Positions 3,302 through 32,336 of a stretch of 44,536 nucleotides of DNA are shown one piece after another (position 1 is the stretch's first letter; each line of letters opens with the position of its first letter). The stretch is taken from NCBI GenBank assembly GCA_900544985.1, contig UQXK01000011.1:1-44536 (forward strand), given 5' to 3'. Source of the DNA: an uncultured Eubacteriales bacterium. GTDB lineage: Bacteria > Bacillota > Clostridia > Oscillospirales > CAG-272. Below the pieces are notes generated by a model. It did no database searches. It was not told the DNA's origin and saw only the letters and a list, made by a program, of their open reading frames with translations. The position numbers and the translations under genes were made by a program.

Positions 3302-4219
3302 TCAATCTTCCGATTCGTCGTCATCGTCATTTTTTTGCTGTTTCATGCTCTTTTTCGGAGGAGCTATTACGGATATCTCCTCCGCGGGATATGTTCTGAA
3401 ACTGAAAGATTCACCGTCGGAAAATTTCACTTTCACCGTTCCCGCAACGGCAGAGACCTCGCAAACGATTCCTTTTCCGTCCTTTGTTTCGACAAGGCTG
3501 TCTTGCTTCGGAAGCTTTTTAAGTTCCTCCTCATAGAAATCGTGTTCATAACGAAGACAGCACATAAGTCTGCCGCAAGCACCGGATATTTTTTGAGAAT
3601 TGAGCGACAAATTCTGCTCTTTTGCCATTTTTATCGAAACTTGAACAAAGTCCGGGAGAAACTTCTTGCAACAAAACGGAAGCCCGCAAACGCCAAGTCC
3701 TCCGATAAGTTTAGTTTCGTCGCGAATACCTATCTGTCTTAGTTCTATTCTCGTTCTGAATACGGAAGCAAGATCTTTTACAAGCTCACGGAAATCAACT
3801 CTTCCGTCCGCGGTAAAGTAAAACATCAGTTTGGAATTGTCGAAAGTATATTCGACATCCACAAGCTTCATTCCGAGTCCGTATTCTTTGATTTTTTGAA
3901 GGCAAATTTCCTGTGCGTCTTTCTCTTTCTCTTTATTCTGACGGTATTTTTCCTTGTCCTCCGCCGTAGCTATTCTTATAACCGGGCGAAGCGGAAGAAT
4001 GACCTCTTTTTCGGGAACGGTTTTATTGCCGACGGAAACAAATCCGTATTCCGTTCCCCTTGCCGTTTCCACTATAACATCGTCGCCGGACGTACAGGAA
4101 ATTCCGCAAGGGTCAAAAAAATATGTTTTTCCGTGCTCTTTAAAGCAGACGCCTATTACCTCGTATTCTTTATTTTCCTCTTCAACCACAGGTGAAGCAT
4201 TTTCTGTATTGTTATCCAT
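3302..4219 (-). CDS. ricT: PSP1-domain protein RicT/YaaT (stage 0 sporulation / RNA-maturation regulator)
   Basis: Matches the PSP1 C-terminal domain, including the Cys cluster GLPFCCKKF...CGRLMCCLRYE. The conserved gene order holB-yaaT is present. The track's M1 is a TTG start, so the likely real start is ATG at 4217-4219. Confidence 0.8.
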   Translation of the reverse strand: MDNNTENASPVVEEENKEYEVIGVCFKEHGKTYFFDPCGISCTSGDDVIVETARGTEYGFVSVGNKTVPEKEVILPLRPVIRIATAEDKEKYRQNKEKEKDAQEICLQKIKEYGLGMKLVDVEYTFDNSKLMFYFTADGRVDFRELVKDLASVFRTRIELRQIGIRDETKLIGGLGVCGLPFCCKKFLPDFVQVSIKMAKEQNLSLNSQKISGACGRLMCCLRYEHDFYEEELKKLPKQDSLVETKDGKGIVCEVSAVAGTVKVKFSDGESFSFRTYPAEEISVIAPPKKSMKQQKNDDDDESED

Positions 4220-18992: not shown

Positions 18993-19038
18993 AAAATATA
19001 AATCAGACATACTATAAAAAGTATGTCTGATTTTATTT
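18993..19038. terminator. bidirectional rho-independent terminator ending the minus-strand 6-gene operon
   Basis: The sequence aaatcagacatactataaaaagtatgtctgattttatttttt is a 13-bp perfect stem, A-rich on the 5' side and T-rich on the 3' side. Confidence 0.75.
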
Positions 19039-19039
19039 T

Positions 19040-19492
19040 TTATTCTTGCTCTGACATAGTCATATCCGTCAACGGCTGTAAAAGCTTTACCATATCATCA
19101 TCAATAAGTTCATTAAACATAAATTGGACATAATCAACAACTGATTTGGCAGAGAAAATATTGATTGCAGAATGACTTACACGTAAATACTCGTTCTCGG
19201 GATTAATATTTACAGATAAAAACAAGCTCTCCGAATTAAAGGTATTGGAAAGGATAAGAGGTGTCTCACTTATAAAAAGCTTATCAAAAATAAAATCCAA
19301 GAAAACCATTCCGCTCTCGTAAGCATTTATGATCATATCGAATTCACCTTTATAATCATCGCAACTAAATCCTGCAACAGTAACTTTCAAACAATTTGGT
19401 TCAAAAGTCATTTGAAAATTTGGTTTCGGCCAATTCTCATATTGACCAAAATATTTTTTTAATTCGTTTTGGCACTCTAAAAGATTAAGCAT
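19040..19492 (-). CDS. hypothetical cytoplasmic protein (150 aa), last gene of the TIR/protease/SPFH operon
   Basis: ORF with an AAAGGA RBS, 34 nt after the protease stop. No recognisable domain. Confidence 0.5.
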   Translation of the reverse strand: MLNLLECQNELKKYFGQYENWPKPNFQMTFEPNCLKVTVAGFSCDDYKGEFDMIINAYESGMVFLDFIFDKLFISETPLILSNTFNSESLFLSVNINPENEYLRVSHSAINIFSAKSVVDYVQFMFNELIDDDMVKLLQPLTDMTMSEQE

Positions 19493-19526: not shown

Positions 19527-20504
19527 TTATTCTCCATGTTCTTTACCACAATCAGGACAGTGTATTATGTGATTTTGGTTAGTTGCATTATTGCTTCCGC
19601 ATTCCGGACATGTTGCAGGTTTAATTTGACTCCACCCTTTCGCCCCTCTGTTTTCGATTATATAAGGACTATCTTTTCTTGATAAACACATATTTAACAA
19701 CTTATAGGCATAATTTGACGGAACTGCGTAATTTGTGCCGTTATCAAGGTCATTTTTATCAAAGCCGCTGTCTAAAACACCAATTACATTAGCATCTTCG
19801 TCAAAAACAGGTCCACCGGAATTACCATGAAAAGCCGCGCAATCAACTAAAAGATGAGGCTTGCCATCATTACGTCTAGGTCGTAATTTATCACTCAAAA
19901 TTCCCATTGAGATACAAGTTCCTTCTCCATTTGCATTTCCGACAATATAAATTGTTTGCCCTGTGCGAAGTTTGTTTGAATCCGCAAAATTAAGTACCCT
20001 TGCATTGTGAGGAACACGTTGAAGTTTCAAAACAGCAATATCCTGATACTCGACTTCTCTTGTGCTCCATCCGACAGCGACAACAGTGGCCGGAATTTTT
20101 TCACCGCATATTTTAGCTATCATATTATTGTAAATACGTCTGCCATCGGTAACACAATGTGAACAAGTTATCATAAAACCGCTGTTATGAACAAGAAAAG
20201 CACTACCACTTCCACAATCAAAGTATATCTCAGCAACTCCATTTACCACCTTGCTGTATAAGGCATCGCCCGCCATTTTCATTGACGGTGAATCCTTCTC
20301 GATCGGAAATGTTGGGGAGGTAATCATAGGTCTTCTTTCAGTAGTCGGATATGTCGGTGAATCATATGAAAAAGAAGGCGTCATATTAAGTTTTGAAGTT
20401 TGCATTTTTGAATTATTATTAGGATTTACAGTTTCCCCGCAATATGGGCAATAATAAGAATTTCCCATCGGCACCATCATCATGCCGCAAGAACTACAAT
20501 TCAT
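19527..20504 (-). CDS. trypsin-like (S1/chymotrypsin fold) serine protease flanked by N- and C-terminal zinc-ribbons
   Basis: Catalytic triad context: TCSHCV (His), QDIAVLKL (Asp), GNSGGPVF (Ser). CxxCG...CPYCG lies at the N-terminus and CPECG...CPDCG at the C-terminus. AGGAGG lies 5 nt before the ATG. Confidence 0.75.
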   Translation of the reverse strand: MNCSSCGMMMVPMGNSYYCPYCGETVNPNNNSKMQTSKLNMTPSFSYDSPTYPTTERRPMITSPTFPIEKDSPSMKMAGDALYSKVVNGVAEIYFDCGSGSAFLVHNSGFMITCSHCVTDGRRIYNNMIAKICGEKIPATVVAVGWSTREVEYQDIAVLKLQRVPHNARVLNFADSNKLRTGQTIYIVGNANGEGTCISMGILSDKLRPRRNDGKPHLLVDCAAFHGNSGGPVFDEDANVIGVLDSGFDKNDLDNGTNYAVPSNYAYKLLNMCLSRKDSPYIIENRGAKGWSQIKPATCPECGSNNATNQNHIIHCPDCGKEHGE

Positions 20505-20526: not shown

Positions 20527-22305
20527 CTAAAATACCAGTGAAGAAATTACGCATAGAGCTAATGTAATTATAAAAGCAAGTAAAAATCTTGATTTTAAAC
20601 TTGTCTCTTTTTCAGCTAAAATTCGTTTTATATCTCTTATAACAAGTAAGACGTTTATAATTATAGAAGCGCCTATTCCTATCGTGCTTAATGAATCCTG
20701 AAAAATCCAGCCCGGTATCAAAAATCCTAATGCAAATCCGCCAAAAGCCAAAGCTATTGTCAATATTATTTTTAATAATGACGATAACGTACTGCCAACA
20801 CCGGAAACTATATCTCCGACGCCGCTTGATTTTCTGCCGTACTTCATTACTTCTTCATGCTTTCTTTGAGCATCATTGGCCTTGTATTCTGCTTCTTTTT
20901 CAGCCTGTGCCTTGGTTTCGGCTATAGCATTATTGAGAGTCCTCTTATATGTATTATAAGTGGACATTTCACCCGGACAAGCTTTATCCAATTCACCCAT
21001 GGATAATGAAGTTTTACGAACTAAATCTTCATATTTTGCATTTAATTTTGACATCAAATCCTGTAATTTGTTTGACTTATCAGCTGTGCTAAAAGCGCCT
21101 TCAAAACCGCTATATGTTGTCCTTGTATAATTATCAGTCATTGCACGGGTATATAAATAAACGACTCTTGGATCTATTTCCGCTTGTTTATAAGCTATAT
21201 ACAGATCGATCTCCTTCATAATTGTCTTATAATTGGATTGTCCGCTTATAATCGAAGCATTCCACTCATATAATTTGTCCTCTAATTTGTCAGTACTCGG
21301 ATTATATGTTGGTGCATTGCCGCCAATTCCAAGACCACCTAATATACCTCCGAAAGATTTATTTTGAGAACCGACAGCTTTTATAAAACTCTTCTTTTTG
21401 ATAACACTGTCAATGGATTTTTGTAAATCTCCGAGAAAATCTACCGAGCCATATTCTACACCTTGAAATTTTCGCAGCTTCGCAGGAAGAGCATTAGCCT
21501 CCATACCGCCTAGCATAACAGGAATAACAACGCCGTCTTTCTTTTTTCCCGAATCGATCTGAGACAAAAATCTTGTCCATTCGTTTTTCACCCATTTTGC
21601 ATTAAAATATTCCTCTTTTGAACCGCAAACAAGCATAACTTTTGCCGTATCCAACGCATTATAGATATAAGGCTCATATTTTTTGCCTTGATGCTCAATC
21701 ATACTTTCACGGCTGAAAAACACGCTGTATCCTTTTTCTTTCAGCTTATGATAAAGACTGAGTAAATCGTTACTGTCCTGCGTTCTGGATCTTGACTCAT
21801 CATCGTTTTTGTCTTTATATGATATGAAAACATCATATGCGCCTTCTGTCTTCCTTACATTTTTCCATTCTGCCGCATTATCTTCGATAATGGAAATCTG
21901 CTTAAAATAATATTCTTTCTTTTCATCAGGGGCTTTTTCGCAGGCTTTTTTAAAGTTTGAGTTATTTCTCAAACTTTCTCCCGGAATATCGGCAAAAGTC
22001 GGAACCATCTTTTTGCCACCGTCATCGACATACACAATTTTATTTTGTGCCAAAAATTTCGCCCAGTAAGCCTCATAAGCATCAGTATGGTCAGCTATAT
22101 AAATATCCATCATATTTTCGGCAACATCGAATTCCATTTCTGAAATTTTAGCCATTGCTCTTTTTATTTCAGTAATATTATTTTCTTCCGCATTTTTAAC
22201 CTTGTATGTATTACCGCACCCCTCGCAATAATATGTATCGCCATTTATAATAACCATCTGTGTTCCACACGATGAACACGTCATCATTTCAGTTCTAAGT
22301 TCCAT
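20527..22305 (-). CDS. Zn-ribbon / TIR-domain protein with coiled-coil region and C-terminal 3-TM membrane anchor
   Basis: YDVFISYKDKNDD...KVMLVCGSKEEYFNAKWVKNEWTRFL is a TIR signature and includes a Glu at the catalytic-Glu position. N-terminal CSSCG...CEGCG ribbon. C-terminal hydrophobic helices. GAGGTGA lies 5 nt before ATG 22303-22305. The track's TTG extension is rejected. Confidence 0.75.
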   Translation of the reverse strand: MELRTEMMTCSSCGTQMVIINGDTYYCEGCGNTYKVKNAEENNITEIKRAMAKISEMEFDVAENMMDIYIADHTDAYEAYWAKFLAQNKIVYVDDGGKKMVPTFADIPGESLRNNSNFKKACEKAPDEKKEYYFKQISIIEDNAAEWKNVRKTEGAYDVFISYKDKNDDESRSRTQDSNDLLSLYHKLKEKGYSVFFSRESMIEHQGKKYEPYIYNALDTAKVMLVCGSKEEYFNAKWVKNEWTRFLSQIDSGKKKDGVVIPVMLGGMEANALPAKLRKFQGVEYGSVDFLGDLQKSIDSVIKKKSFIKAVGSQNKSFGGILGGLGIGGNAPTYNPSTDKLEDKLYEWNASIISGQSNYKTIMKEIDLYIAYKQAEIDPRVVYLYTRAMTDNYTRTTYSGFEGAFSTADKSNKLQDLMSKLNAKYEDLVRKTSLSMGELDKACPGEMSTYNTYKRTLNNAIAETKAQAEKEAEYKANDAQRKHEEVMKYGRKSSGVGDIVSGVGSTLSSLLKIILTIALAFGGFALGFLIPGWIFQDSLSTIGIGASIIINVLLVIRDIKRILAEKETSLKSRFLLAFIITLALCVISSLVF

Positions 22306-22319
22306 TTTTGTCACCTCAA

Positions 22320-23018
22320 TCAATATATTTTACAAGCTTTGCATTTATGGTTTCTTTCATCAAAAAGACGGGAAATATCTCTGGATAATGCTATTGCTGT
22401 TTCTTCATCAGCATTCTTCGCCGTTTCAAGTAATTGCAATATCTCAGTTTCCAAGTTTTCCGTGTCGGCTATACTTACAGGATCACTGTAAATATATTTT
22501 TTATATAATTCTCCGTATGATGATTTGATTTTTTCACTGGATCCATGTTTGCTTAGTATTTCCATCTGCAATGTTACGTTTTTTATAAATTTCGTATTAT
22601 CTATAACATTTGTTCTGACGCTTTCCACTTTTTCCTTATAAGCAAAACCTGAAAAAGCAAAAACAGAAAAAACGACAAGAACAATAACCTGCGGTATCAT
22701 GGCTAAGGCAAACGGTATTTTTTTGCTTATGCAAATAAATATAGTGGATATTATAAATTCAACGCCAAAATATATAGCGCTGTGTTTATAAAGAGGAATT
22801 CTAAATATCCAGTCGCACGCTTCATTAAGTCTCGAACGAAAGAAAATGAAAATCGTTTCTATAAATAAAAACGATATACATTCAAAAACAAAAGATACCC
22901 AAAACACCGAATTATGCCCCGAAAACCCAGCGATAGAAAAAACGGTTATCGCATAGATCGCCATAAAAATTGGGGGCAGTATAAACGATATACTTAATTT
23001 ATTCTTTTTGTCTTTCAT
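22320..23018 (-). CDS. integral membrane protein (4 TM + C-terminal soluble domain), hypothetical
   Basis: AGGAGG lies 5 nt before the ATG. The start overlaps the upstream gene's stop (ATGA). Four hydrophobic helices. Confidence 0.6.
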   Translation of the reverse strand: MKDKKNKLSISFILPPIFMAIYAITVFSIAGFSGHNSVFWVSFVFECISFLFIETIFIFFRSRLNEACDWIFRIPLYKHSAIYFGVEFIISTIFICISKKIPFALAMIPQVIVLVVFSVFAFSGFAYKEKVESVRTNVIDNTKFIKNVTLQMEILSKHGSSEKIKSSYGELYKKYIYSDPVSIADTENLETEILQLLETAKNADEETAIALSRDISRLFDERNHKCKACKIY

Positions 23019-23299
23019 GTTGCCTCCTTTTCAGGCACTTTTGCAGCACCGCATTTTTCACAAAAATTTTTATAGTTTTTTTCTCCGCATTTTTTGCAAA
23101 TCCACAAAATTTCTATCGTTTCACTTTGTTGCCCCATTGTCTTTTCCAGATTTGTTTCCATCGTTAAGGGCTGCGGTTTTGCCTCAATTGCTTTATTCAT
23201 TTTTTCCATACTTTCTCTGACAAAAGAGCGTCTTTCATCACAATTATTTTTTATCAAAGGCTCTCCTCTGGGAGAAAATTCAAATTTTTCGTATTTCAT
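23015..23299 (-). CDS. small zinc-ribbon protein (94 aa)
   Basis: C-terminal CKKCGEKN...CEKCG. GAGGTGA RBS. Translationally coupled to the downstream gene. Confidence 0.6.
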   Translation of the reverse strand: MKYEKFEFSPRGEPLIKNNCDERRSFVRESMEKMNKAIEAKPQPLTMETNLEKTMGQQSETIEILWICKKCGEKNYKNFCEKCGAAKVPEKEAT

Positions 23300-23323: not shown

Positions 23324-25303
23324 TTATTGTTCTTTTTCAGATTGTTTTTCTTTACCGCACTCGTTGCAAAATTTTCCTGTGTTTTCAGCTCCGCATTCGC
23401 ATTTCCATTTCTGCGGTTTTGATTTGCCACACTCGCTGCAAAACTTTCCTGTGTTTTCAGCTCCGCATTCACATTTCCATTTCTGCGGTTTTGATTTGCC
23501 GCACTCACTGCAAAAATTCCCTGTGTTTTCAGCTCCGCATTCACATTTCCAGGAATCATCTTTTGATTTATTCTCTGTTTTTTTGAATGAATTTTGTCTT
23601 TCATCATCGTTTTCGTTCATGACATTGTTGACTTCTTTGGCAACGTTTTTCCCTACTGCTTTTCCTATTTGCCAGTCCATTATCATGCCGCCCAAATTAT
23701 TAAATGTTCCCCCATTACCTCCGGAACCGTAAAATCCTCCACCCATACTTGGACCTCCTACTCTGCTGCCAACTTTACCGATAGCTTCTGCTCTTGCTAT
23801 ATCCACTTCTGCTCCCAGAACATCCTTGCCGTCATAATTCATTTCACGCATAGCCTGAGCATGACCAAGTTCTTTATGTATCTCTATGTCGGCTTCCGCT
23901 CCTTGCTTATAGATTTCGGAATCCGCTTCCATCATTCTTCTTGCATTTTCAAGCTGTAATTCAGTCATTTCAGCTTCTGTCTTATTGGCAAGTTCCGCAG
24001 AAGCTCTTATGGCATTCACGGTTGCCTCTCCTGAAACTCCCGCTACATTTAGATCATTTTGTCTTTGAATCTGATTACGTGCACCGGCAGCCGCCACTTC
24101 ATTAAGTTTGTCCTGTGCTTTCATAGTAACTATACCAAGATCCGTATCCTCCTGAATATTAAACGCCTCACGACGTCTTTGCAAATATTTTTGGAACGTC
24201 TCATCATTTTCGGGAAGCTGGATTTTTGATACAGCAAAATCAACAAGAGTTAATCCGAATTTCTCAAACTCCGTAGCTATAAGTTTCGAAATTATTTCTC
24301 CGAATTCCACAAGGTTATTTTCTATTACTACTATGTCAAGCTTGTTGTCCATTATCAAACGAGAAAAATTCTGTTTGATAATAGGCTGTATTCTGTTAAG
24401 CAAAATTTTTTTCGGAGGATTTTTTATAGGATCTATCCCGTATTTTCTCAGTTCATCAACATCCGGATTAAAAAGATCCATAGTACGAAGATTATCTGCA
24501 TTAGCGCCAAATTCCTTTAAGATTTGTCTGGAATTTGCTATCTGCAAACTAAGTTCTCCGCTAAGACCTATCTGAAAAGGTATATTTCCCATATTGGCAT
24601 CACGATAAGTTATACCGCCGATTCCCCATTTTATCCCTCTGATACAAGATGTATTAAAGAAATACACCTTAGACAAAAAAGGCGTTTGTCCATCAGGAGG
24701 TAATGCATTCATGCCAACTAACATAGGAATATTTTCTGTATTCAGAGTGTGAGTGCCCGGACCAAATAAATCAAGAGGTTGTCCGCCAAGTACAAAAACG
24801 ACTTCCTGAGAAGGTCCTACAATCAATTGAGAGCCCATATTTATCTTTTCAATAGTGTGCTTATATGAGAGAAAGTTAGAATCTCCTTCATATTTTATAA
24901 CACTGATAGAATTAGGATCATACTGACTGTTTATAGCGATTTCTCTTTTTACATCTATATGAGTACCGCATCCGGGACAATCCGCATATTGTTCGGAATT
25001 ACCGTTCAATCTGACAGATATACTCATATTACATTTTGGACATAAGATCTGTACACGTTTATTAAAAACATCATTTGCAGATTCATTTGCGGAAAATGTT
25101 TTTTTACAGTTTGAACACTTTATATTTTCCAAACCGAATTTATAAAGTCCCGTCTTTCCGCAATGCGGACACTCTATTTTAGCCATTCTCTCCTGTTTGA
25201 CATTTACAATTTTTCCGCAATGATCGCATTTTGCTGTCTTGCTGAATGTTGATACATAGATATCCGAGTTACAATCAGGACAAGTAATTATAATTTTTGC
25301 CAT
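23324..25303 (-). CDS. SPFH/band-7 (flotillin/YdjI-like, COG4260-type) protein with three N-terminal and three tandem C-terminal zinc-ribbons
   Basis: SPFH core (VVFVLGGQPLDLFGPGTHTL...). Coiled-coil/Ala-Glu-rich region. Gly-rich linker. C-terminus with 3x WKCECGAENTG(K/N)FCxECGK. N-terminus with CPDC/CDHC, CPHC/CSNC, CPKC/CPGC pairs. AGGAGG lies 8 nt before the ATG. Confidence 0.75.
   Translation of the reverse strand: MAKIIITCPDCNSDIYVSTFSKTAKCDHCGKIVNVKQERMAKIECPHCGKTGLYKFGLENIKCSNCKKTFSANESANDVFNKRVQILCPKCNMSISVRLNGNSEQYADCPGCGTHIDVKREIAINSQYDPNSISVIKYEGDSNFLSYKHTIEKINMGSQLIVGPSQEVVFVLGGQPLDLFGPGTHTLNTENIPMLVGMNALPPDGQTPFLSKVYFFNTSCIRGIKWGIGGITYRDANMGNIPFQIGLSGELSLQIANSRQILKEFGANADNLRTMDLFNPDVDELRKYGIDPIKNPPKKILLNRIQPIIKQNFSRLIMDNKLDIVVIENNLVEFGEIISKLIATEFEKFGLTLVDFAVSKIQLPENDETFQKYLQRRREAFNIQEDTDLGIVTMKAQDKLNEVAAAGARNQIQRQNDLNVAGVSGEATVNAIRASAELANKTEAEMTELQLENARRMMEADSEIYKQGAEADIEIHKELGHAQAMREMNYDGKDVLGAEVDIARAEAIGKVGSRVGGPSMGGGFYGSGGNGGTFNNLGGMIMDWQIGKAVGKNVAKEVNNVMNENDDERQNSFKKTENKSKDDSWKCECGAENTGNFCSECGKSKPQKWKCECGAENTGKFCSECGKSKPQKWKCECGAENTGKFCNECGKEKQSEKEQ
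23343..23542. repeat. three near-identical tandem 72-bp repeats (coding, 24-aa Zn-ribbon units of the SPFH protein)
   Basis: Directly visible: ...gcaaaa(t/c)tt(t/c)cctgtgttttcagctccgcattc(g/a)catttccatttctgcggttttgatttgcc... repeated three times with few substitutions. Confidence 0.85.
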
Positions 25304-25450
25304 AAATATCCTCCTATTTTTATCACTATATAATAACTAAGTTTAATGATCGCCATAATAAATATGACCGATGCCACTTTTATGATGATCCATGTCTTTT
25401 TTTCATTCACTTTTTCATGTCTTCCTCCATTTTTCATTTAAAATAAACAT

Positions 25451-25475
25451 ACCACATAATTTGTATTATGTAGTA
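25451..25475. repeat. left 25-bp inverted repeat of putative invertible DNA switch
   Basis: accacataatttgtattatgtagta is the perfect reverse complement of 25671-25695. Confidence 0.85.
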
Positions 25476-25490
25476 AAATGATATAGCGGT

Positions 25491-25519
25491 AAATAAAAAG
25501 GCGTGCTAAATTGCACGCC
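25491..25519 (-). terminator. rho-independent terminator (minus-strand orientation) inside invertible segment
   Basis: ggcgtgc-taaatt-gcacgcc stem followed by TTTTTATTT on the minus strand. It would stop read-through from the recombinase gene. A second, opposite-facing AT-rich hairpin plus T-run lies at 25525-25565. Confidence 0.55.
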
Positions 25520-25620
25520 ATAAAGACCAATGAAAAAATAAAATATTCATTGGTCTGTTTTTGTTATACCATTTTTCATCTTTTTCAGACAATAATCGTT
25601 CATAAAATGTATAAAATTTA

Positions 25621-25649
25621 TTGACACTATTTTGAATTTATGCTATTAT
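25621..25649 (+). promoter_or_regulatory. near-consensus sigma-70 promoter inside the invertible segment, currently facing away from the TIR/SPFH operon
   Basis: TTGACA - 17 bp - TATTAT. Oriented toward IR-R and antisense to the recombinase 3' end. Inversion would point it at the operon start (25303). Confidence 0.6.
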
Positions 25650-25670
25650 TTATTTGTGAATTTATATGTA

Positions 25671-25695
25671 TACTACATAATACAAATTATGTGGT
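25671..25695. repeat. right 25-bp inverted repeat of putative invertible DNA switch
   Basis: tactacataatacaaattatgtggt is the perfect reverse complement of 25451-25475. It lies 11 bp from the recombinase stop codon. Confidence 0.85.
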
Positions 25696-25705
25696 TTAGT
25701 TTTTC

Positions 25706-26545
25706 CTAAGTTCGCAAAAGTCCCAATTTTTCAACCTGACGACGATGCACCTCGCCGCTCTCCATAGTATAAATACGGGTTGTGTTTATGCTGCTGTGCC
25801 CAAGTATATCTGCAAGCCTTACGATATCTTTCTGTATACTGTAATATGTCCTTGCGAACAAATGTCTTAAATTATGCGGAAACACTTTTTTCTCAGATAC
25901 GTTCGCAGATTTGCAGAGCTTTTTCATATCAGACCATATATTCGATCTATCAAGAGGTCTTCCGTTCTTTGTAACAAAAATCGGTCCGCTTGATATTTTT
26001 TTCTTTTTTATATATTCTTTTAGCATCTTACAAAGTGCAGCAGGCAAAAATATGAGCCTACGTTTCCCCTTACAGATTATTTCTGTATTCTGTCGCGTCA
26101 AAGAATCAACGGTAATATGTTTAAGCTCGGAAATTCTTATTCCGCATGAACATATCGTCTGCATCAGAAAATACAACCGATCGTTTTTCTCTCTTTTTGC
26201 CGCCAATAAAAGACGTTCATACTCACTCTTTGTAAGCTCCTTATCACCGGATAAAAATATCTGCTTTTGAACTTTCAAAGTTTTTACTTTCAGTTCATGC
26301 CACTGCATAAAAACAAAAAAGCTATTAAGTGATGAGATAATAGAATTAACACTGGTCGGAGCATATTTTTCGGATATTTCCGACTTATATTTCAGAACAT
26401 CACTTTTATTAAACTCATTTGCACTAAGCCAATTCGCAAAAGTTAATATATCGTGCATATATTTACAAATCGTCGCGTGTGATTTTTCTTCATTTGAAAG
26501 ATGTTCTTTGAACATTTCTAAATTTTGATTTGAAATTTTTCTCAT
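25706..26545 (-). CDS. tyrosine site-specific recombinase (small, invertase/Xer-like)
   Basis: C-terminal catalytic motifs HNLRHLFA and GHSSINTTRIYT (catalytic Tyr). Length ~280 aa with no arm-binding extension. GGAGG...AAAGGGG RBS lies before the ATG at 26543-26545 (MRKISNQ). The track's longer 5' extension is unlikely. Confidence 0.8.
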   Translation of the reverse strand: MRKISNQNLEMFKEHLSNEEKSHATICKYMHDILTFANWLSANEFNKSDVLKYKSEISEKYAPTSVNSIISSLNSFFVFMQWHELKVKTLKVQKQIFLSGDKELTKSEYERLLLAAKREKNDRLYFLMQTICSCGIRISELKHITVDSLTRQNTEIICKGKRRLIFLPAALCKMLKEYIKKKKISSGPIFVTKNGRPLDRSNIWSDMKKLCKSANVSEKKVFPHNLRHLFARTYYSIQKDIVRLADILGHSSINTTRIYTMESGEVHRRQVEKLGLLRT

Positions 26546-26838
26546 TTGTTTAATCCCCTTTCTCCTCCATTTTATCATACTTGTATAAAGATTACAGCGC
26601 TCGTTAATCAACTCAGACAAAACGATGAGCAGACTTTACGACCACAAATAAAGTGGAAATAAAGTCTGATTTTTTGTTGTCCAAATCGCTTTTGCTATCC
26701 ATTTCTACAAATAAAGGTAATAAACCCCCAAAAATTTAAATATTTTTTCCTCAATAATATAACCTTTTGAGTGCACACAAGACCCGTTGATGCGTTTACG
26801 TCACAATACTTATTGGGTATAATCATAACATAAATGTT

Positions 26839-27231
26839 ATGGAGGAACGCACAGGGATGAATTCTTCATTAAGCAAAAAATCTTTTGGTGCACTTATACG
26901 GAAATTTCGTCTTAAAAACGGATATACTCAACAACAGCTTGCATTAAAAATCGGAATACAAACAAAATCCATAAGCTTTATCGAAAGAGGAATAAACTAT
27001 CCCTCTCCCGAAAATATTTTTAAGTTGGCACAGGTTCTTAATATATCTCTTGATGAATATATTTTCGGTTATTGCAAATTCGATCCCACTATCAATAATG
27101 ATGAAATAAATTCTATGTTTAATTCTCTCTCCAACGAAGACCTGCATTTTATGATAACTATGTTAAAAACTATTTATGGTCTACTTAATGAAAGGAAACC
27201 TGTCGTTAAAAATACCGGAAATAAAATATGA
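26839..27231 (+). CDS. XRE-family HTH transcriptional regulator (possible start at 26857)
   Basis: GYTQQQLALKIGIQTKSISFIERG is a Cro/C1 HTH. Divergent from the recombinase gene. Confidence 0.7.
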   Translation: MEERTGMNSSLSKKSFGALIRKFRLKNGYTQQQLALKIGIQTKSISFIERGINYPSPENIFKLAQVLNISLDEYIFGYCKFDPTINNDEINSMFNSLSNEDLHFMITMLKTIYGLLNERKPVVKNTGNKI

Positions 27232-27752
27232 ACTCTTTACAAGAAATAACTTTTGATGACGCATATAAAATGTTTCATCCCAAAATTCTGCAATATTGTT
27301 ATTATAAAACGAACCATAACATGAATATTGCGGAAGAGATATCTCAGGAAGCATTTTTAGCCTTGTATCTATCCTGGGATAAACTGTATTTCCACTCCAA
27401 AGCCCTGATTTTTTCTTGGCTTCACAAAACTGCCAAAAATATGTTGTCAAAATATTTCAGACAATTAAAGAAACTCAGTAATACAATAAGCTATGATGAA
27501 TATTTTTCCCAATATCAGGATATCGGAGTTTCCGATGATAATTTGGAAAACCTCGATCTTTCATATGAAAAATATATTGAAGAGATCAAAAAATTCCTTT
27601 CTCCCGAAGATTTTCAACTTTTTACATATGCCTGTATCGAGAAACTCTCTATCATTCAGATTTCCCTTCTCTTAAATATCAATTTTAATACTGCCAAGTC
27701 TCGCATAAGACGCATGAAATCCAAACTTAAACTCTTTTTATCAGATTTTTAA
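27228..27752 (+). CDS. ECF-type sigma-70 family RNA polymerase sigma factor
   Basis: Region-2-like (ISQEAFLALYLSW) and region-4 HTH (LSIIQISLLLNINFNTAKSRIRR). Size ~170 aa. Confidence 0.65.
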   Translation: MNSLQEITFDDAYKMFHPKILQYCYYKTNHNMNIAEEISQEAFLALYLSWDKLYFHSKALIFSWLHKTAKNMLSKYFRQLKKLSNTISYDEYFSQYQDIGVSDDNLENLDLSYEKYIEEIKKFLSPEDFQLFTYACIEKLSIIQISLLLNINFNTAKSRIRRMKSKLKLFLSDF

Positions 27753-27844
27753 TCCGATAAAAATTTTTTAAAATATATGCACCCAAAATTCATTTTTTGG
27801 TATTATATATATGAGTCCGATACGCGAGAAATTGAGGATACAAA

Positions 27845-28696
27845 ATGGAAACAAACAAAATTTCAAACAGTTCTAATCAAAAACAAATTGACGAACTTAT
27901 GAAAAAAATCGAAAAAGAGCTTAGTAAGCCGGAAAATAAAATCGACATGAAACTTGTCGATAGTTATTTTGAGCAAATCGAAGAACTGAATGGAGGGATA
28001 TGCAAAAAAACAGATTCCGAGCTGGCGAAAGGACTTAATCAAATAAAAGAACAGGGTGATCGAATAAAAAAGACTCTTCCTACCGTTGCTCCTATGAAAA
28101 CGCAACCAATCAAAAGAACTATTCCTCTACGCAAACGTCTTGCAATCTCATTTGCAGCTGTATTTTTGGTAATTGCGCTGTCATTCTCCGTTGCCGCAGC
28201 TTCTCTCGGCGGATTCAGTAAAGCATGGATATACATTTCAAATTCCGTAAAAGAAATTTTCGGCATGGATTCCGGCGAAACAGAAATGGACGGCATTACT
28301 GTTATAAAAGGCAAATACAGCAAAAAATACAATACTATTGAAGAACTTTTGTCAAATGAGAACTTCGATGATATATTATATCCTTCAAAATTGCCGGAAA
28401 ATATAAAAATAAAGTCCGTCTCTCAAATTCAACTGAACGACGAACAATATACCTTAACATTTCAATTTAATTCAGATAATGTGAGGCTTCGTATTAATAA
28501 CTACTACGAAATTAATCTCTCTCTATTATCCGACTATACAATATATCAAGCAAACGGAATAGAATTTTATATATTACAAAAAGAAGACGGATATTATTCT
28601 ATCGCCCAATATGACGGAAAAGAATATTCCGCAAACTGCAATAACTACGAAGATCTGATCTATATTTTATCTAACATGAAAGGCTATTCTAAATGA
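27845..28696 (+). CDS. putative anti-sigma factor (cytoplasmic N-domain, single TM, extracytoplasmic domain)
   Basis: Topology, and position immediately after the ECF sigma gene. Confidence 0.45.
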   Translation: METNKISNSSNQKQIDELMKKIEKELSKPENKIDMKLVDSYFEQIEELNGGICKKTDSELAKGLNQIKEQGDRIKKTLPTVAPMKTQPIKRTIPLRKRLAISFAAVFLVIALSFSVAAASLGGFSKAWIYISNSVKEIFGMDSGETEMDGITVIKGKYSKKYNTIEELLSNENFDDILYPSKLPENIKIKSVSQIQLNDEQYTLTFQFNSDNVRLRINNYYEINLSLLSDYTIYQANGIEFYILQKEDGYYSIAQYDGKEYSANCNNYEDLIYILSNMKGYSK

Positions 28697-29082
28697 AAAA
28701 ATTTTTTGTTTTTATAATATCCGCAGTCCTCATACTTTCTATATGTTTTTCATCGACTGCCGCAAATATCCAATATACATATAATTACGGTAATGTAAGC
28801 GTAATATTTAATGACAATACCCATTTTTCGGAAGCTTCCCGCGAACATATAGCCGATATACTTGTCGGAAAAATTGGAGCGGATTCCGAAATCGAACCAT
28901 ATGGCATAGCCTGTCTTTTCGGTCATAAATATGTTACGGAAAATGTAATCACAATAACTCATTGTGTAAGTGAGACACAACCGAAATGCCTGAAAGAAAT
29001 TTTCGAAATAAGCGAATGTTCACGTTGCGGAAAAACAAAGACAGAAAGAATTGATTACTATTATATCACTTGCTGCCCGTAA
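28693..29082 (+). CDS. secreted small cysteine-rich protein (signal peptide; 129 aa)
   Basis: N-terminal MKKFFVFIISAVLILSICFSSTAA signal peptide. Seven Cys in the C-terminal half. Start overlaps the anti-sigma stop. Confidence 0.5.
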   Translation: MKKFFVFIISAVLILSICFSSTAANIQYTYNYGNVSVIFNDNTHFSEASREHIADILVGKIGADSEIEPYGIACLFGHKYVTENVITITHCVSETQPKCLKEIFEISECSRCGKTKTERIDYYYITCCP

Positions 29083-29108
29083 TATAGAATAATAAAAATA
29101 TAACAAAA

Positions 29109-29146
29109 ACAGGAAACAAATTGTTCCCTGTTTTTTTGTTTTTTAA
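29109..29146 (+). terminator. rho-independent terminator after the ECF-sigma operon
   Basis: aacaggaaacaaattgttccctgtttttttgtttttt is an imperfect stem plus a long T-run. Confidence 0.6.
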
Positions 29147-29356
29147 TAATGACCGCACAAATGTTTTTTATATTTTCCGGTTGATAAAAAGTGACTTATT
29201 AAAAACTTTTTCAAATACCGTACCGTCATTTTGCTTTTCAGTCAAATCATCTATATATCCGCCGCGTACAACAGTGCGAAGAGCTCCGTGAAGTAGTTAT
29301 CTAACAAGTGTGTATTCCCTGTCGTCTTATAAGCATATATATAATATGTACTCAAA

Positions 29357-29698
29357 TTATACTGAATATGGGCGTCTGTAATTTTCAATAATTTTTTCAA
29401 ACAAAAAATTCTCTTCCGTTGAAAGTTTACTTTCCGAAATACTTTTCACTTTGATCAAAAGGGATATTTCCTCCGGCGTCATATATGCACGGTCCATCGT
29501 GTAATCGCCTACCACATATACTCCTCCGCCATATTTCCCTGCTTTTGTATCCAGAGGCATCATAAAAGTAAGTTCAAAAATATCTCTCTGTATTGTTCTC
29601 ACGGAAACACCGAATTTTTCGGCAAGAAAAGACATTGTCGCGTGCCTTTTTCTGCAAAGGTATTTCATGATTTCCAAACGTCTTTCGGCTGTCCCCAT
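29357..29698 (-). CDS. small HTH-domain protein (DeoR/WYL-N-terminal-like HTH), solitary paralog of 43852-44220
   Basis: MGTAERRLEIMKYLCRKRHATMSFLAEKFGVSVRTIQRDI. Clear paralogy to the protein at 43852-44220 (shared MGTAERR, GVSxRTIxRDI, GxYxGGVYVxxDYxMxRxYM). Confidence 0.6.
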   Translation of the reverse strand: MGTAERRLEIMKYLCRKRHATMSFLAEKFGVSVRTIQRDIFELTFMMPLDTKAGKYGGGVYVVGDYTMDRAYMTPEEISLLIKVKSISESKLSTEENFLFEKIIENYRRPYSV

Positions 29699-29835
29699 AA
29701 ATCACTTCCTTTCGCACAAACAAAAACATGACAAACAGCCAAACCAGCCACCTGTCATGCTCATATCTTAAAAATCGTGCGATGTACGAAGTGTTTTTAT
29801 CTTAAATTTTTATACTTTTCCAATAACTGAAAAAG

Positions 29836-30039
29836 TCAAACTATTATTGCAGAATCGTCTATTTTGTAAACTGTATTCTCATTTGAAATCTTTACTGCCA
29901 AAACATTCTTGCAGTTTTTGCATTTTATGATTATATCAGCTTTTTCGGAATTACTGTCCGATAATTTTGATATTGTTATCGTTTTATTTGAATCACAAGC
30001 TCTTCTGTTGCATATAGGACAAGGATACTCTTTTATCAT
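29836..30039 (-). CDS. small zinc-finger protein, phage Mu Com-like (67 aa)
   Basis: CPICNRRA...IKCKNCKN are two CxxC pairs in a ~65-aa protein. The call is tentative. Confidence 0.35.
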   Translation of the reverse strand: MIKEYPCPICNRRACDSNKTITISKLSDSNSEKADIIIKCKNCKNVLAVKISNENTVYKIDDSAIIV

Positions 30040-30113
30040 TTAATTCCTCCAATTTATTCGCAATTTTGCGAACACGCACGGCGAAAAATATATGGTGAAC
30101 AAACACCATATAT

Positions 30114-30872
30114 TTAAGTATATCGATATTTATTTTTAATAATGCCCAAATTAAGCATTCTTATCTGTACAGCCTTGCAAGATACCTGAAAAACATTTGC
30201 AATATCAGCGATAATACTGTTCAAACGCTTTTTCTCGGAAAATGTTTCGGGAACCGAAATATATTTTCCGCTTATTCCGTTCTTGCTCATTATCTTGTAC
30301 GTATAATTCACAAATACATTCATCGGCATAAGCAACGATGCCGCAAGAGCATCTGCCTGCCATTCGATCCAATCGTTATCCGTGATATTTTTCGTCTTAT
30401 TCAGTTCTACACTACGGCACGCTATATACGAAGACGAATCGCCGACCCGATTTCTTAAATTCTCGTTTTTTCTGCCATAATACGCTTTGTGCAAAATAAA
30501 ATGTGCCCCCTCATGCATCTGCGTATAACGTCGTCTGGTATACTGATCTATATTGTATAACGCAGGTGTGATCAGAATATTTCCAAAAGTCTCCTCCAAA
30601 ATGACAGGTTTAAACATATCATCATATGAAGGAATCTCAACGATATCGCTCATAACGATAAGTCCCAAAATTTTGGAGCCGAAAGGACCTATATATTTGC
30701 ATTTTACAACAAGACCGAGATAGTTTTCCAAAAAATCAACAGTATCCAAAGATGTCGGACGTTCAAGGTTTTGCGGAGCATATTCTCGGATAACACTGTC
30801 TGCAATATTTTCAATGTCATTTTTGGAGAGAATATAAAGACCGTTTTCTTTTTGAACGTACTCTGATTTCAT
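30114..30872 (-). CDS. ImmA/IrrE-family metallo-endopeptidase (DUF955)
   Basis: HEGAH is an HExxH motif, in YTQMHEGAHFILH context. Immediately downstream of an XRE gene. Confidence 0.7.
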   Translation of the reverse strand: MKSEYVQKENGLYILSKNDIENIADSVIREYAPQNLERPTSLDTVDFLENYLGLVVKCKYIGPFGSKILGLIVMSDIVEIPSYDDMFKPVILEETFGNILITPALYNIDQYTRRRYTQMHEGAHFILHKAYYGRKNENLRNRVGDSSSYIACRSVELNKTKNITDNDWIEWQADALAASLLMPMNVFVNYTYKIMSKNGISGKYISVPETFSEKKRLNSIIADIANVFQVSCKAVQIRMLNLGIIKNKYRYT

Positions 30873-30894
30873 AAAAAGGCACCTCAATAATACT

Positions 30895-31284
30895 TTAAGA
30901 GTTTTTTTGTTTGATAAACTTTATAAGTTCCATCCAGTCTTCATCGGTAAAATTATTGTCTTTTGCAGTTCGAAGCGCCATGCGTGCAGACGGCAATGAT
31001 TCAATATATTCATTGATATCGCTGTGCTGTCCGTTTTGGCTTATGCCTGCCAAATCGTAAAAAGTATTCAATTCATCGGTATCGGTAATTTCCAAGGCAC
31101 TTGCAAAAGTTTCGAGAAATTTTTCCGGGGCATGACGATTTCCCTTTTCTATATCACATAAATAAGCCGGTGATATCTTCACTTTTTCGGCAAAACCTCT
31201 TAAATTAAACCCAAGTTCCTCTCTTCTTTGTCTGACATATTCACCGAACGGTGAACTTACTTCCTTCATAACGGTATTCCCCAT
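30895..31284 (-). CDS. XRE-family HTH regulator (ImmR-like partner of ImmA)
   Basis: GFNLRGFAEKVKISPAYLCDIEKGNR is an HTH. Its stop is 7 nt from the ImmA start. Confidence 0.7.
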   Translation of the reverse strand: MGNTVMKEVSSPFGEYVRQRREELGFNLRGFAEKVKISPAYLCDIEKGNRHAPEKFLETFASALEITDTDELNTFYDLAGISQNGQHSDINEYIESLPSARMALRTAKDNNFTDEDWMELIKFIKQKNS

Positions 31285-31344
31285 TAAATTATCGCTGCAC
31301 TAATAATATAAATCGACAAAACTATTTTTATCGCGCATTGTTCG

Positions 31345-31360
31345 CAAGTTTGCTAACTTG
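31345..31360. promoter_or_regulatory. palindromic putative operator upstream of the ImmR-like gene
   Basis: CAAGTT-tgct-AACTTG sits ~60 bp upstream of the ImmR-like start. Confidence 0.3.
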
Positions 31361-31475
31361 ATAACACAATTATACAATATTTTCCCAATTATGTCAAGTG
31401 AACTATACTTCATGTTTATAAATATAATAAAGAAACTCATCACTTTCGCATTAACAAAAGTGATAAGTCCTTTTA

Positions 31476-32276
31476 TTATAATTCAGGTAAAATTTCAGGG
31501 AAAGAAAGCACTGATTTATCAGACGAATCGATTGCTATTATATATTTTTCGGACAATTTCGCATAACTTAATTTCGGAGCTTCACAAATAACTTTTTCAA
31601 AAAGTTTTTTTGCAGTGTCCTTATCTCCCGAATAATATTTTATAGCAGCAGTGTAAAAAACCTGACTCATCTTAATAATATTACTTGTTTTTGAAGTTTG
31701 TTTGTTAAATAAATCTTCTAATATTTTTTTGCATTCATCGAAATCTTCTTTTAAATAGCTTTCGAATAATTTTATAGTATTATCTTTTATTTTTTTCGCG
31801 CTATCCTTTTCATAGTTTCTGAATTTTTCACAAACTGTTTTTAATTTCTCATTGTCTCCAATATCAAAATAGACTCGCGAAAGTATCAAAAAATAATCAT
31901 ATTTATATTTTAAACTGCGCTTTCCTTTAATTACATTTGTGCACATATTTACTGCCATTTGATAATTTCCGGAATAATAGTAGTAAAGTACACGATATAA
32001 TTCACTCCTGCACATAATACATATTTTAGAATTTATTATCAAACCAAATTTTTCCGGATCCATATCTTTACACAAAACCGGCATATATAATTTTGCCTCT
32101 AATACCATGGTAAAAACAAGAAGCATAAAACCAAGAAAAATCAATAAAACAAGATATGCCCAAAATTTATCAAAAAAAATAATTTCCAATGCAATTAGCG
32201 ACATCATCAATAGAAAAAATATTGTCATCAAAACAAAATATTTCCTAATAATACTTTTAGCACTCTTATTATTCAT
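31476..32276 (-). CDS. multi-pass membrane protein with TPR-like C-terminal region; putative immunity protein for the RHS toxin
   Basis: Position directly downstream of the RHS C-terminal toxin domain. Three or four TM helices. The start is probably at MNNKSAKS. Confidence 0.5.
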   Translation of the reverse strand: MNNKSAKSIIRKYFVLMTIFFLLMMSLIALEIIFFDKFWAYLVLLIFLGFMLLVFTMVLEAKLYMPVLCKDMDPEKFGLIINSKICIMCRSELYRVLYYYYSGNYQMAVNMCTNVIKGKRSLKYKYDYFLILSRVYFDIGDNEKLKTVCEKFRNYEKDSAKKIKDNTIKLFESYLKEDFDECKKILEDLFNKQTSKTSNIIKMSQVFYTAAIKYYSGDKDTAKKLFEKVICEAPKLSYAKLSEKYIIAIDSSDKSVLSFPEILPEL

Positions 32277-32336
32277 AAATCCCCCTATAAAATTATTGCA
32301 CAAAAATTTATACCACAAAATCACCTATGATTTTAA

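Follow-up and report, generated by a model that had tools for sequence, protein, structure and literature searches.

A probable invertible promoter next to a Xer-like tyrosine recombinase gene in an uncultured Clostridia bacterium, and its relatives in other Clostridia

We have analyzed a stretch of 44,536 nucleotides from an uncultured Eubacteriales bacterium (GTDB lineage Bacteria; Bacillota; Clostridia; Oscillospirales; CAG-272; contig UQXK01000011.1 of the GenBank assembly GCA_900544985.1), called the window from here on, and specifically a short segment enclosed by two inverted repeats (IRs) beside a gene that codes for a tyrosine recombinase. In all likelihood (we would put the probability at roughly 85%) this region is a phase-variation switch, or inverton, in which a promoter cassette is flipped by the adjacent recombinase and gates an operon coding for an SPFH protein, a TIR protein and a protease, the sequenced copy being in the OFF orientation. 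A phase-variable invertible promoter had already been proposed here from the letters of the sequence (the original prediction), and this reading is now supported by the same layout in most of the related loci examined (68 of 80), by the co-variation of the spacers at the centre of paired recombination sites, by the presence of both orientations among relatives and by the read counts published for inverton group 139, treated below. Actually, read-based surveys had previously picked up the inverton family to which the switch belongs. The support is mainly comparative, and we infer that the recombinase is the invertase, that this copy is still flipping, and that the operon has an active promoter in the switch and no other.

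Recombination sites, promoter and terminators

The sequence ACCACATAATTTGTATTATGTAGTA occupies positions 25451-25475 and is repeated in exact reverse complement at 25671-25695, forming the perfect pair of 25-bp IRs that had been predicted. No other copies with up to three mismatches were found in the window, and the pair had 0 occurrences by chance in 100 dinucleotide-preserving shuffles. A weaker complementarity (75%) stretches the repeat arms to 56 nt (25442-25497 and 25649-25704). Each repeat appears to be a complete 26-bp recombinase site, made of two inverted ACCACATAAT-type arms that flank an asymmetric centre of 6 nt (Table 1). Core sites of the dif, lox and FRT type have this same anatomy, with inverted arms and an asymmetric centre. 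Besides, each site folds as a hairpin of 10-11 bp with an energy of -9 to -12 kcal/mol. One variant of the locus that is 97% identical (L004, positions 3422-3460, from ERR9661481; L numbers designate loci throughout) has two substitutions in the recombinase-side site, placed symmetrically at -7 and +7 relative to the spacer, which change aaccACATAA...TTATGTagta into aacaACATAA...TTATGTtgta, by which the palindrome becomes more perfect, and the cargo-side site is unaltered.

Within the segment, at its edge and 21 nt from the right repeat (IR-R), we have confirmed the TTGACA-17-TATTAT promoter pointed out in the original prediction. It matches the consensus at 11 of 12 positions, was the top match in the 2.2 kb scanned and reads outward. 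As sequenced, it is oriented toward the recombinase gene, the state that had been labeled OFF, and the transcription start site (TSS) is predicted at about 25656, toward IR-R and the 3' end of that gene. The two opposed intrinsic terminators described before are also there, both with fold z values of about -7. On the minus strand, between the left repeat (IR-L) and the start of the operon, there was no sigma-70-like site with at least 9 of 12 matches, and in this same interval, which would be the leader in the ON state (IR-L to 25303), no strong terminator was found. The recombinase gene, too, showed no promoter of the consensus type. A scan with Rfam gave no family match, hence no riboswitch explanation, while a tRNA scan gave no tRNA gene and no att-like direct repeats were found.

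Table 1. Coordinates of the features of the switch, the recombinase gene and the cargo operon. Positions are those of the window; a dot marks features given without a strand.
Feature	Position	Strand	Description
Invertible segment	25476-25670	.	195 bp; holds one promoter and two terminators
IR-R, recombinase-proximal site	25671-25696	-	aaccACATAA-TTTGTA-TTATGTagta; two putative inverted binding arms, asymmetric central spacer
IR-L, cargo-side site	25450-25475	-	tactACATAA-TACAAA-TTATGTggta; spacer exactly reverse-complementary to that of IR-R
Sigma-70-type promoter	25621-25649	+	TTGACA 25621-25626; 17-nt spacer ending in TGc (extended -10); TATTAT 25644-25649
Intrinsic terminator, leftward transcripts	25490-25519	-	hairpin 25500-25519, GGCGTGC-loop-GCACGCC, then TTTTTATTTA U-tract; fold z -7.0 against shuffles
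Intrinsic terminator, rightward transcripts	25524-25566	+	11-bp hairpin 25524-25556, then TGTTTTTGTT / UGUUUUUGUU; fold z -7.4 against shuffles
Tyrosine recombinase, presumed invertase	25706-26545	-	279 aa from ATG, Xer-like; stop codon 10 nt from the right repeat
Plus-strand hairpin followed by TTTTTTGTTG	26631-26679	+	-17.9 kcal/mol, z -4.6; between the recombinase start and a divergent helix-turn-helix (HTH)/sigma operon
Vestigial start of the lost first cargo gene	25416-25428	-	ribosome binding site (RBS) GGAGG 25428-25424; ATG 25418-25416, then MKK-stop
Cargo gene 1	23324-25303	-	659 aa; N-terminal zinc ribbons, SPFH Band_7_1 (Pfam 1.5e-29), three C-terminal zinc-ribbon repeats
Cargo gene 2	23015-23299	-	94 aa; C-terminal CxxC...CxxC zinc ribbon; no Pfam match above threshold
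Cargo gene 3	22320-23018	-	232 aa; multi-pass membrane protein; L061 and L011 have homologues located after their SPFH gene
Cargo gene 4	20527-22323	-	592-598 aa; zinc ribbon, TIR_2 (Pfam 1.3e-13), C-terminal transmembrane helices; L061 homologue in the same operon position
Cargo gene 5	19527-20504	-	325 aa; zinc ribbon, trypsin-like serine protease Trypsin_2 (Pfam 2e-26), zinc ribbon
Cargo gene 6	19040-19492	-	150 aa; no recognisable domain
Bidirectional terminator closing the operon	19000-19033	.	14-bp stem

The recombinase

The recombinase of about 280 aa that had been predicted is there (279 aa), the distance to the right repeat being 10 nt and not 11 bp; the coordinates of the original prediction are otherwise essentially confirmed. 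The protein has a Phage_integrase domain (PF00589, 5.5e-29) and an N-terminal SAM-like core-binding domain (PF02899) in Pfam, and in an alignment with 28 homologues the catalytic residues R137, H224-x-x-R227, H250 and Y259 were invariant. The top NCBIfam matches were XerA, XerD and XerC, all of them below the cut-offs (140 bits against 220 for XerA, 127 against 330 for XerD), and the models of FimB/FimE-type tyrosine DNA invertases (NF007370 and NF007371) reached only 27.2 bits (cut-off 221) and 19.6 bits (cut-off 222). The nearest solved structures were those of the archaeal XerA (4a8e, 1.1e-22, and 5hxy), of XerD and of XerH. The protein is thus an intact Xer-like tyrosine recombinase outside all named families, its scores falling below both the Xer and the FimB/E cut-offs.

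A family of switches in Clostridia

Homologues of this recombinase with about 279 aa are found by the thousands in gut metagenomes. We have scanned one genome per GTDB species and found 532 recombinase relatives, the best 80 of which (62-70% identical) were fetched as loci. All 80 come from metagenome-assembled genomes (MAGs) of Clostridia, belonging to Oscillospiraceae, Acutalibacteraceae, Ruminococcus, Monoglobus and others. The search for the same site beside homologous recombinases in other genomes, suggested along with the original prediction, was positive in the 68 loci that share the order recombinase, site, promoter, site and cargo; most of those lacking the full layout are contigs that end at or just past the recombinase gene. 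In the 68 loci the first site is located 3-35 nt past the stop codon of the recombinase and the second one, inverted, a median of 211 nt further.

The consensus of the site over the family is tACcACATAAT-NNNN-ATTATGTgGTa, and the arm positions outside the pattern used for detection are conserved at 86-93%. The 6-nt spacer, on the other hand, is found in 34 forms across the loci, none of them palindromic, and yet it is the reverse complement of the spacer of its partner site in 67 of 69 raw pairs and in 68 of 68 after curation (a third site had been wrongly picked in L070 and a spurious match in L076), while shuffled partners matched in a mean of 3.2 cases and a maximum of 11. Conserved arms around a centre that is free to vary as long as it matches that of the partner are what is expected of a functional pair of tyrosine-recombinase sites, and the inverted orientation of the asymmetric spacer predicts inversion, not deletion. 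We have considered whether the repeats of the window could have arisen by chance or be an element acting at the RNA or structural level without any recombination. The sequence is AT-rich and each repeat does fold as a hairpin. However, the shuffles gave no matches, there is no Rfam family, the arms are conserved over a co-varying spacer in 68 loci and the orientation differs between relatives, so that this explanation seems effectively refuted by the comparative data.

In 62 of the 68 segments there was one clear best promoter, of the type TTGACA-17-TGnTATAAT and always at the edge of the segment. The distance from the -10 box to the repeat that it faces has a median of 22 nt in the loci in OFF and of 34 nt in those in ON (11-68 nt overall). 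The promoter faces the recombinase (OFF) in 44 loci and the cargo (ON) in 18, the remaining 6 being ambiguous. Among close relatives the inversion can be seen directly. Between L012 and L013 the flanks are collinear and 82% and 94% identical, whereas the segments are 93% identical when one of them is reverse-complemented and only 56% in the forward orientation. Comparable inversions were found between the group L006, L009, L011 and L028 and L008, between L062 and L063, between L072 and L082, and between L039 and L052 on one side and L066 on the other. Terminators are also part of the pattern: those opposing the promoter were detected in 31 of the 62 segments and those co-directional with it in 20, against 7.4 expected in both cases. 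Finally, five or six of the 80 contigs end no more than about 40 nt past the stop codon, i.e. at the first repeat. Assemblers break at polymorphic inversions, for which reason these contig ends provide circumstantial support for flipping.

There is prior evidence of flipping in switches of this type. A read-based survey of the defined hCom2 gut community described inverton group 139, "previously unpublished", with 33 members, 32 of them from Clostridia, and its strongest genomic association was with a neighbouring tyrosine recombinase/integrase, invertase group 35, which accompanies almost all members (Microbiome 2025, PMC11892184). The IRs listed in the supplement are ACAACATAATATTAGTTATGTTGTA ... 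TACAACATAACTAATATTATGTTGT for Clostridium sp. D5 and ACATAATGATGATTATGTGGTAA ... TTACCACATAATCATCATTATGT for Clostridium VE202-27 (bioRxiv 10.1101/2024.06.01.596983). We have parsed the D5 site as ACAACATAA-TATTAG-TTATGTTGTA and the VE202-27 site as ACATAA-TGATGA-TTATGTGGTAA; both IRs fit tACcACATAAT-N4-ATTATGTgGTa, including the partner-matched spacer. The D5 inverton had 102 reads in the forward and 254 in the reverse orientation within the culture, with shifts across passages (PMC11892184). The flipping of this switch type is therefore documented experimentally by read counts in cultured Clostridia, its dependence on the recombinase being presumed, and the common site motif suggests that our recombinase belongs to the same family as invertase group 35.

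Some members of the family have more than two sites or more than one cassette. An additional, third site with an identical spacer was found in nine loci (L057, L058, L060, L065, L070, L075, L077, L084 and L085), about 33-41 nt from one of the main sites in eight of them and about 190 nt beyond the distal site in L070. Such a copy would permit alternative inversions or serve as an accessory binding site. The MAG SIG626 (SVQV01) has three paralogous cassettes, L039, L052 and L066, each of them followed by the gene of a surface protein longer than 1200 aa. They share the spacer TTTTCA, and L066 is in ON, L052 in OFF and L039 weakly in OFF (it was one of the ambiguous cases in the orientation census). 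In other MAGs with two cassettes the spacers differ, which would prevent recombination between cassettes.

Another explanation to be weighed is that the repeats serve a different Xer-like reaction, either a dif-like resolution of dimers or the integration and excision of a mobile element. The best NCBIfam and PDB matches of the recombinase are indeed XerA, XerD, XerC and XerH, and single-recombinase Xer systems often carry their site beside the gene. Against this, the Xer scores are far under the curated cut-offs (140 vs 220 bits, for example), the two inverted sites, about 200 bp apart, enclose a promoter and not a replicon or an element, several paralogous cassettes with differing cargo are present in single MAGs, both orientations exist among relatives, and neither a tRNA gene nor att-like direct repeats were found. 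We consider such a reaction very improbable.

Orientation of the locus and its link to the operon

The same locus, at 97-100% identity, was found in seven assemblies from six samples: the contig of the window, a second assembly of ERR414233, and ERR11473225, ERR9661481, ERZ28618051, OLWH01016359 and ERZ27268649. Copies were sought through contigs with identical recombinase, SPFH and TIR proteins and through a search with an 18-mer of the site, which retrieved copies in OFF only. In viral contigs the 18-mer gave four isolated single matches and no switch, with no sign of carriage by phages. We have also searched the JGI/ENA metagenome contigs for the exact ON junction, with no matches. The junctions predicted for the inverted state are AAATAAACAT-IR-TACATATAAATTC and the reciprocal AAAAACTAA-IR-AAATGATATAGCGG.

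Just past IR-L, the window has an RBS and an ATG with only two more codons before a stop (Table 1). In L169 (OLWH01016359.1, 1-1132), where the same switch is 98.5% identical and in OFF, the same RBS and ATG open a gene that codes for a BspA-type leucine-rich repeat (LRR) lipoprotein of 354 aa (MKKRSLVIISTILLSGIIFTLVSCS...), located between IR-L and the SPFH operon. The LRR gene in L169 compared with the MKK-stop of the window indicates that the lineage of the window lost its first cargo gene, which coded for a surface protein of the type common in the family, by a clean deletion that brought the SPFH operon beside the switch.

Several points weigh against a working switch that controls the operon. 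All seven assemblies are in OFF and the search for the ON junctions gave 0 matches; the promoter and the terminators have been assigned as matches to consensus motifs only; as the first cargo gene has been lost, the SPFH/TIR operon is linked to the switch only secondarily; and an internal or condition-specific promoter of the operon may exist. The uniformity of the assemblies is, however, weak negative evidence, as they show the majority orientation only. OFF is also the majority state in the family (44 vs 18), and hence the result in six samples is not unexpected. Flipping of this exact locus is thus what the comparison with its relatives would predict rather than something that has been seen.

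Uniform OFF copies are also what would be expected of a fossil or locked switch, a former inverton without appreciable flipping whose operon is permanently silent or driven from elsewhere; the deletion of the first cargo gene and the lack of a recognisable consensus promoter for the recombinase gene fit this idea too. However, the 25-bp IRs are perfect and the recombinase open reading frame (ORF) is intact with all its catalytic residues, and close variants of the locus differ by a few single nucleotide polymorphisms, none of them disrupting the spacer. Together with the predominance of OFF in the family and the majority orientation given by assemblies, this makes a locked switch, in our opinion, quite unlikely.

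It might also be that the switch flips and the SPFH/TIR/protease operon is not its true target, the promoter in ON having served the deleted LRR lipoprotein gene while the operon is regulated separately. The LRR gene does come first after the switch in L169, and most cargos in the family are surface proteins. On the other side, the minus strand between IR-L and 25303 has no terminator or promoter-like site that would separate the operon from the switch, and SPFH or Zn-ribbon genes are the first cargo in 7-10 other loci, one of which (L061) repeats the order SPFH, membrane protein and TIR protein. This alternative seems to us unlikely, and we favor an inverton that gates the operon as it now stands.

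Proposed mechanism

In the mechanism that we propose, the 279-aa recombinase would bind the arms of the sites at 25450-25475 and 25671-25696, and strand exchange across the TTTGTA/TACAAA centre would invert the 195-bp segment, because the sites are inverted and have an identical non-palindromic spacer. In the OFF state transcription would run from the promoter toward the recombinase gene, whose own read-through would end at the minus-strand terminator (25519-25500), leaving the operon silent; the operon would be without a recognisable promoter in this state because that read-through is stopped. Inversion to the ON state would move the promoter to the minus strand (about 25525-25497) and its TSS to near 25490, and the transcript would cross IR-L and the vestigial RBS and ATG and then the six-gene operon from 25303 to 19040. 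The second hairpin (25524-25566) would then be upstream of the promoter, facing the recombinase gene, and would take over as its terminator.

The transcript produced in OFF would be antisense to the recombinase gene. The plus-strand hairpin at 26631-26679 could stop it before the HTH/sigma operon. No other plus-strand transcription could reach the hairpin. An antisense terminator upstream of the recombinase start was considered as a feature of the family and rejected: a lax scan detected it in 56 of 82 loci, and a strict scan with controls in 8 of 78 against 1.9 expected. The same strict scan on the sense strand was positive in 28 of 78 loci.

A further possibility concerns the sites themselves. 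Over the family (loci L006-L085), the 10 nt outside the recombinase-side site have on average 6.0 T, with at least 6 T in 69% of the loci, while the 10 nt outside the cargo-side site have 2.6 T and reach at least 6 T in only 7%. Because in the family the site folds as a hairpin with a T-tract on the recombinase side only, the recombination site may double as an intrinsic terminator for the transcripts of the OFF state only. This is less clear in the window, where both outer flanks of the sites are T-rich (25696-25705 and 25441-25450).

Cargo of the switch and genomic context

The operon announced in the original prediction, with six genes starting at 25303, corresponds to six packed ORFs, all on the minus strand, that extend to 19040 with gaps or overlaps of no more than 34 nt. 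At the 3' end of the SPFH gene (23324-23610, minus strand) there are three tandem zinc-ribbon units of about 24 aa, WKCECGAENTG(K/N)FCSECGKSKPQK, which give near-identical DNA repeats with long spurious ORFs overlapping in other frames.

In the family, the first downstream gene is co-directional with the recombinase in all 67 loci, and the ORF starts just past the distal site. The commonest first cargos are large surface-type proteins with Listeria-Bacteroides repeats (Flg_new), collagen-like, cohesin, BspA LRR (LRR_5), SLH or vWA domains. Other first cargos are of the zinc-ribbon/SPFH kind, with Zn-ribbon families present in 9-10 loci and a Band_7_1 domain in 7. A gene homologous to the SPFH gene of the window is found directly after the switch in 8 other loci, and L061 keeps the gene order as well. 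In L012 (5107-8832), L013 and L015 the cargo consists of a vWA protein, a PP2C phosphatase and an LRR-bearing Ser/Thr kinase, and in L053 of an SPFH protein and an FHA-FtsK/SpoIIIE ATPase. These cargos indicate that the family gates signalling or conflict-type modules besides adhesins.

The N-terminal half of the TIR protein (Zn-ribbon and TIR) is about 40% identical to many Clostridia proteins of 800-1000 aa (P0123-P0240) that continue with BspA-LRR (LRR_5), TPR or InlB-type repeats. These homologues probably have a receptor-like layout, with variable C-terminal repeats and a cytoplasmic TIR domain. The TIR protein has a motif, AKWVKNEW, which we take by eye to resemble the WxxxE region. A search of PDB sequences with this protein gave no matches.

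The description of the cargo as a defence or abortive-infection module, part of the original prediction, found no support in PADLOC or NCBIfam, neither of which gave a match to any known system. The scan of the cargo with PADLOC-DB v2 found similarity only at the level of the protease domain (RT-Protease_XI, 6.5e-19, and LmuA, 4.5e-10) and to no TIR system model, and the scan with NCBIfam found no defence system, the Thoeris ThcB4 model reaching 22 bits against a cut-off of 220. Searches of the literature for phase-variable TIR/SPFH systems and for invertons of Lachnospiraceae and Oscillospiraceae yielded nothing specific. A defence or abortive-infection role is possible as a hypothesis, and a role at the envelope or associated with the surface would fit the context of the family at least as well. 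Tentatively, and as a more speculative idea, the switch may gate an undescribed membrane-anchored module for conflict or envelope surveillance, composed of an SPFH scaffold, a TIR protein and a trypsin-like protease, all three bearing zinc ribbons, with the recombination site acting also as an orientation-specific terminator. Such a module might be kept silent in most cells as costly and turned ON in a subpopulation, as bet-hedging for instance against phages.

The switch is located within a low-GC island (about 19-38 kb) flanked by the housekeeping genes of a GH4 enzyme, an AraC regulator, a class II aminoacyl-tRNA synthetase and PfkB. The first set of genes next to the switch (26839-29082) codes for an XRE HTH protein, a sigma-70-like protein and two products without a known identity. 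Beyond it there are an HTH_11 regulator, an ImmA/IrrE-XRE pair at 30114-31284 and an RHS-repeat protein of 1907 aa at 32337-38060. This part of the island (26839-38060) looks like a variable region of the competition or defence type.

Significance and comparison with known systems

Promoter inversion is the main known route of surface diversification in gut commensals. Much work has been devoted to it in Bacteroides, E. coli and C. difficile, and hardly any in the uncultured Clostridia that dominate the family described here. The design is compact and portable, one recombinase, a 26-bp site and a cassette of about 200 bp, in which conserved arms go with a spacer that may vary as long as the partners match. 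This spacer rule can be used to find switches from sequence and to predict the ON or OFF state in assemblies, and possibly to build orthogonal switches for Firmicutes. With a TIR/SPFH/protease operon as cargo in place of an adhesin, phase variation in the family would reach beyond surface proteins to a candidate module for conflict or membrane stress.

The arrangement in the window resembles that of fimS with FimB and FimE in E. coli, where a short promoter segment flanked by IRs, with recombinase genes of the tyrosine type adjacent to it, sets a downstream operon ON or OFF, and where the promoter in the OFF state also points back at a recombinase gene. The fimS switch has IRs of 9 bp and depends on IHF and Lrp, and the Fim recombinases have about 200 aa and no N-terminal SAM-like domain. 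The sites of the window, in contrast, are full core sites of 26 bp, and the FimB/E models are not matched.

Among Firmicutes, the RecV switches of C. difficile (flgB, cwpV, pdcB and others) are similar in that a tyrosine recombinase inverts a promoter or leader, leading to phase variation of surface and signalling functions (PMC7446863, PMC9286219). They differ in that one enzyme acts in trans on many distant switches, while here every switch is accompanied, at 3-35 nt, by a recombinase gene of its own. The invertible promoters of Bacteroides (Mpi, Tsr-type) are likewise invertons of gut commensals that control surface structures, with many paralogous switches per genome; they belong to a different phylum and have a different promoter consensus and different IR motifs. 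Mpi is a serine recombinase that acts globally.

The closest structures are those of the Xer recombinases (XerA, XerD, XerH) and the site is built as in lox and FRT, with a short asymmetric overlap region between inverted arms. The need for matched spacers in the two partners parallels the behavior of heterospecific lox sites. Unlike the Xer proteins, the recombinase of the window is below every Xer cut-off, and it has two inverted sites around a promoter instead of a single dif site.

As for the cargo, a likeness at the domain level only exists with the YdjGHI/SamGHI membrane-stress module of B. subtilis (PMC8581546; bioRxiv 10.64898/2026.02.06.704340), which also combines a Band_7_1 SPFH protein, a Zn-ribbon and a membrane protein. 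The cargo of the window differs in lacking PspA, in having the SPFH domain fused to zinc ribbons and in the addition of the TIR and protease genes.

The invertons of group 139 are like the switch of the window in the ACATAA-N6-TTATGT motif, the outer arms of C/GGT type, the Clostridia hosts and the adjacent tyrosine recombinase, and they are of similar dimensions, with IRs of 13-25 bp around about 206-228 bp. That study was a survey of cultured strains that did not deal with the anatomy of arms and spacer, the co-variation of the spacers or SPFH/TIR cargo. To this inverton family, the present analysis adds the anatomy of arms and spacer with its co-variation rule, 532 relatives at the species level and a census of ON and OFF states in assemblies, together with the possibility that the site doubles as a terminator, and the unusual TIR/SPFH/protease cargo.

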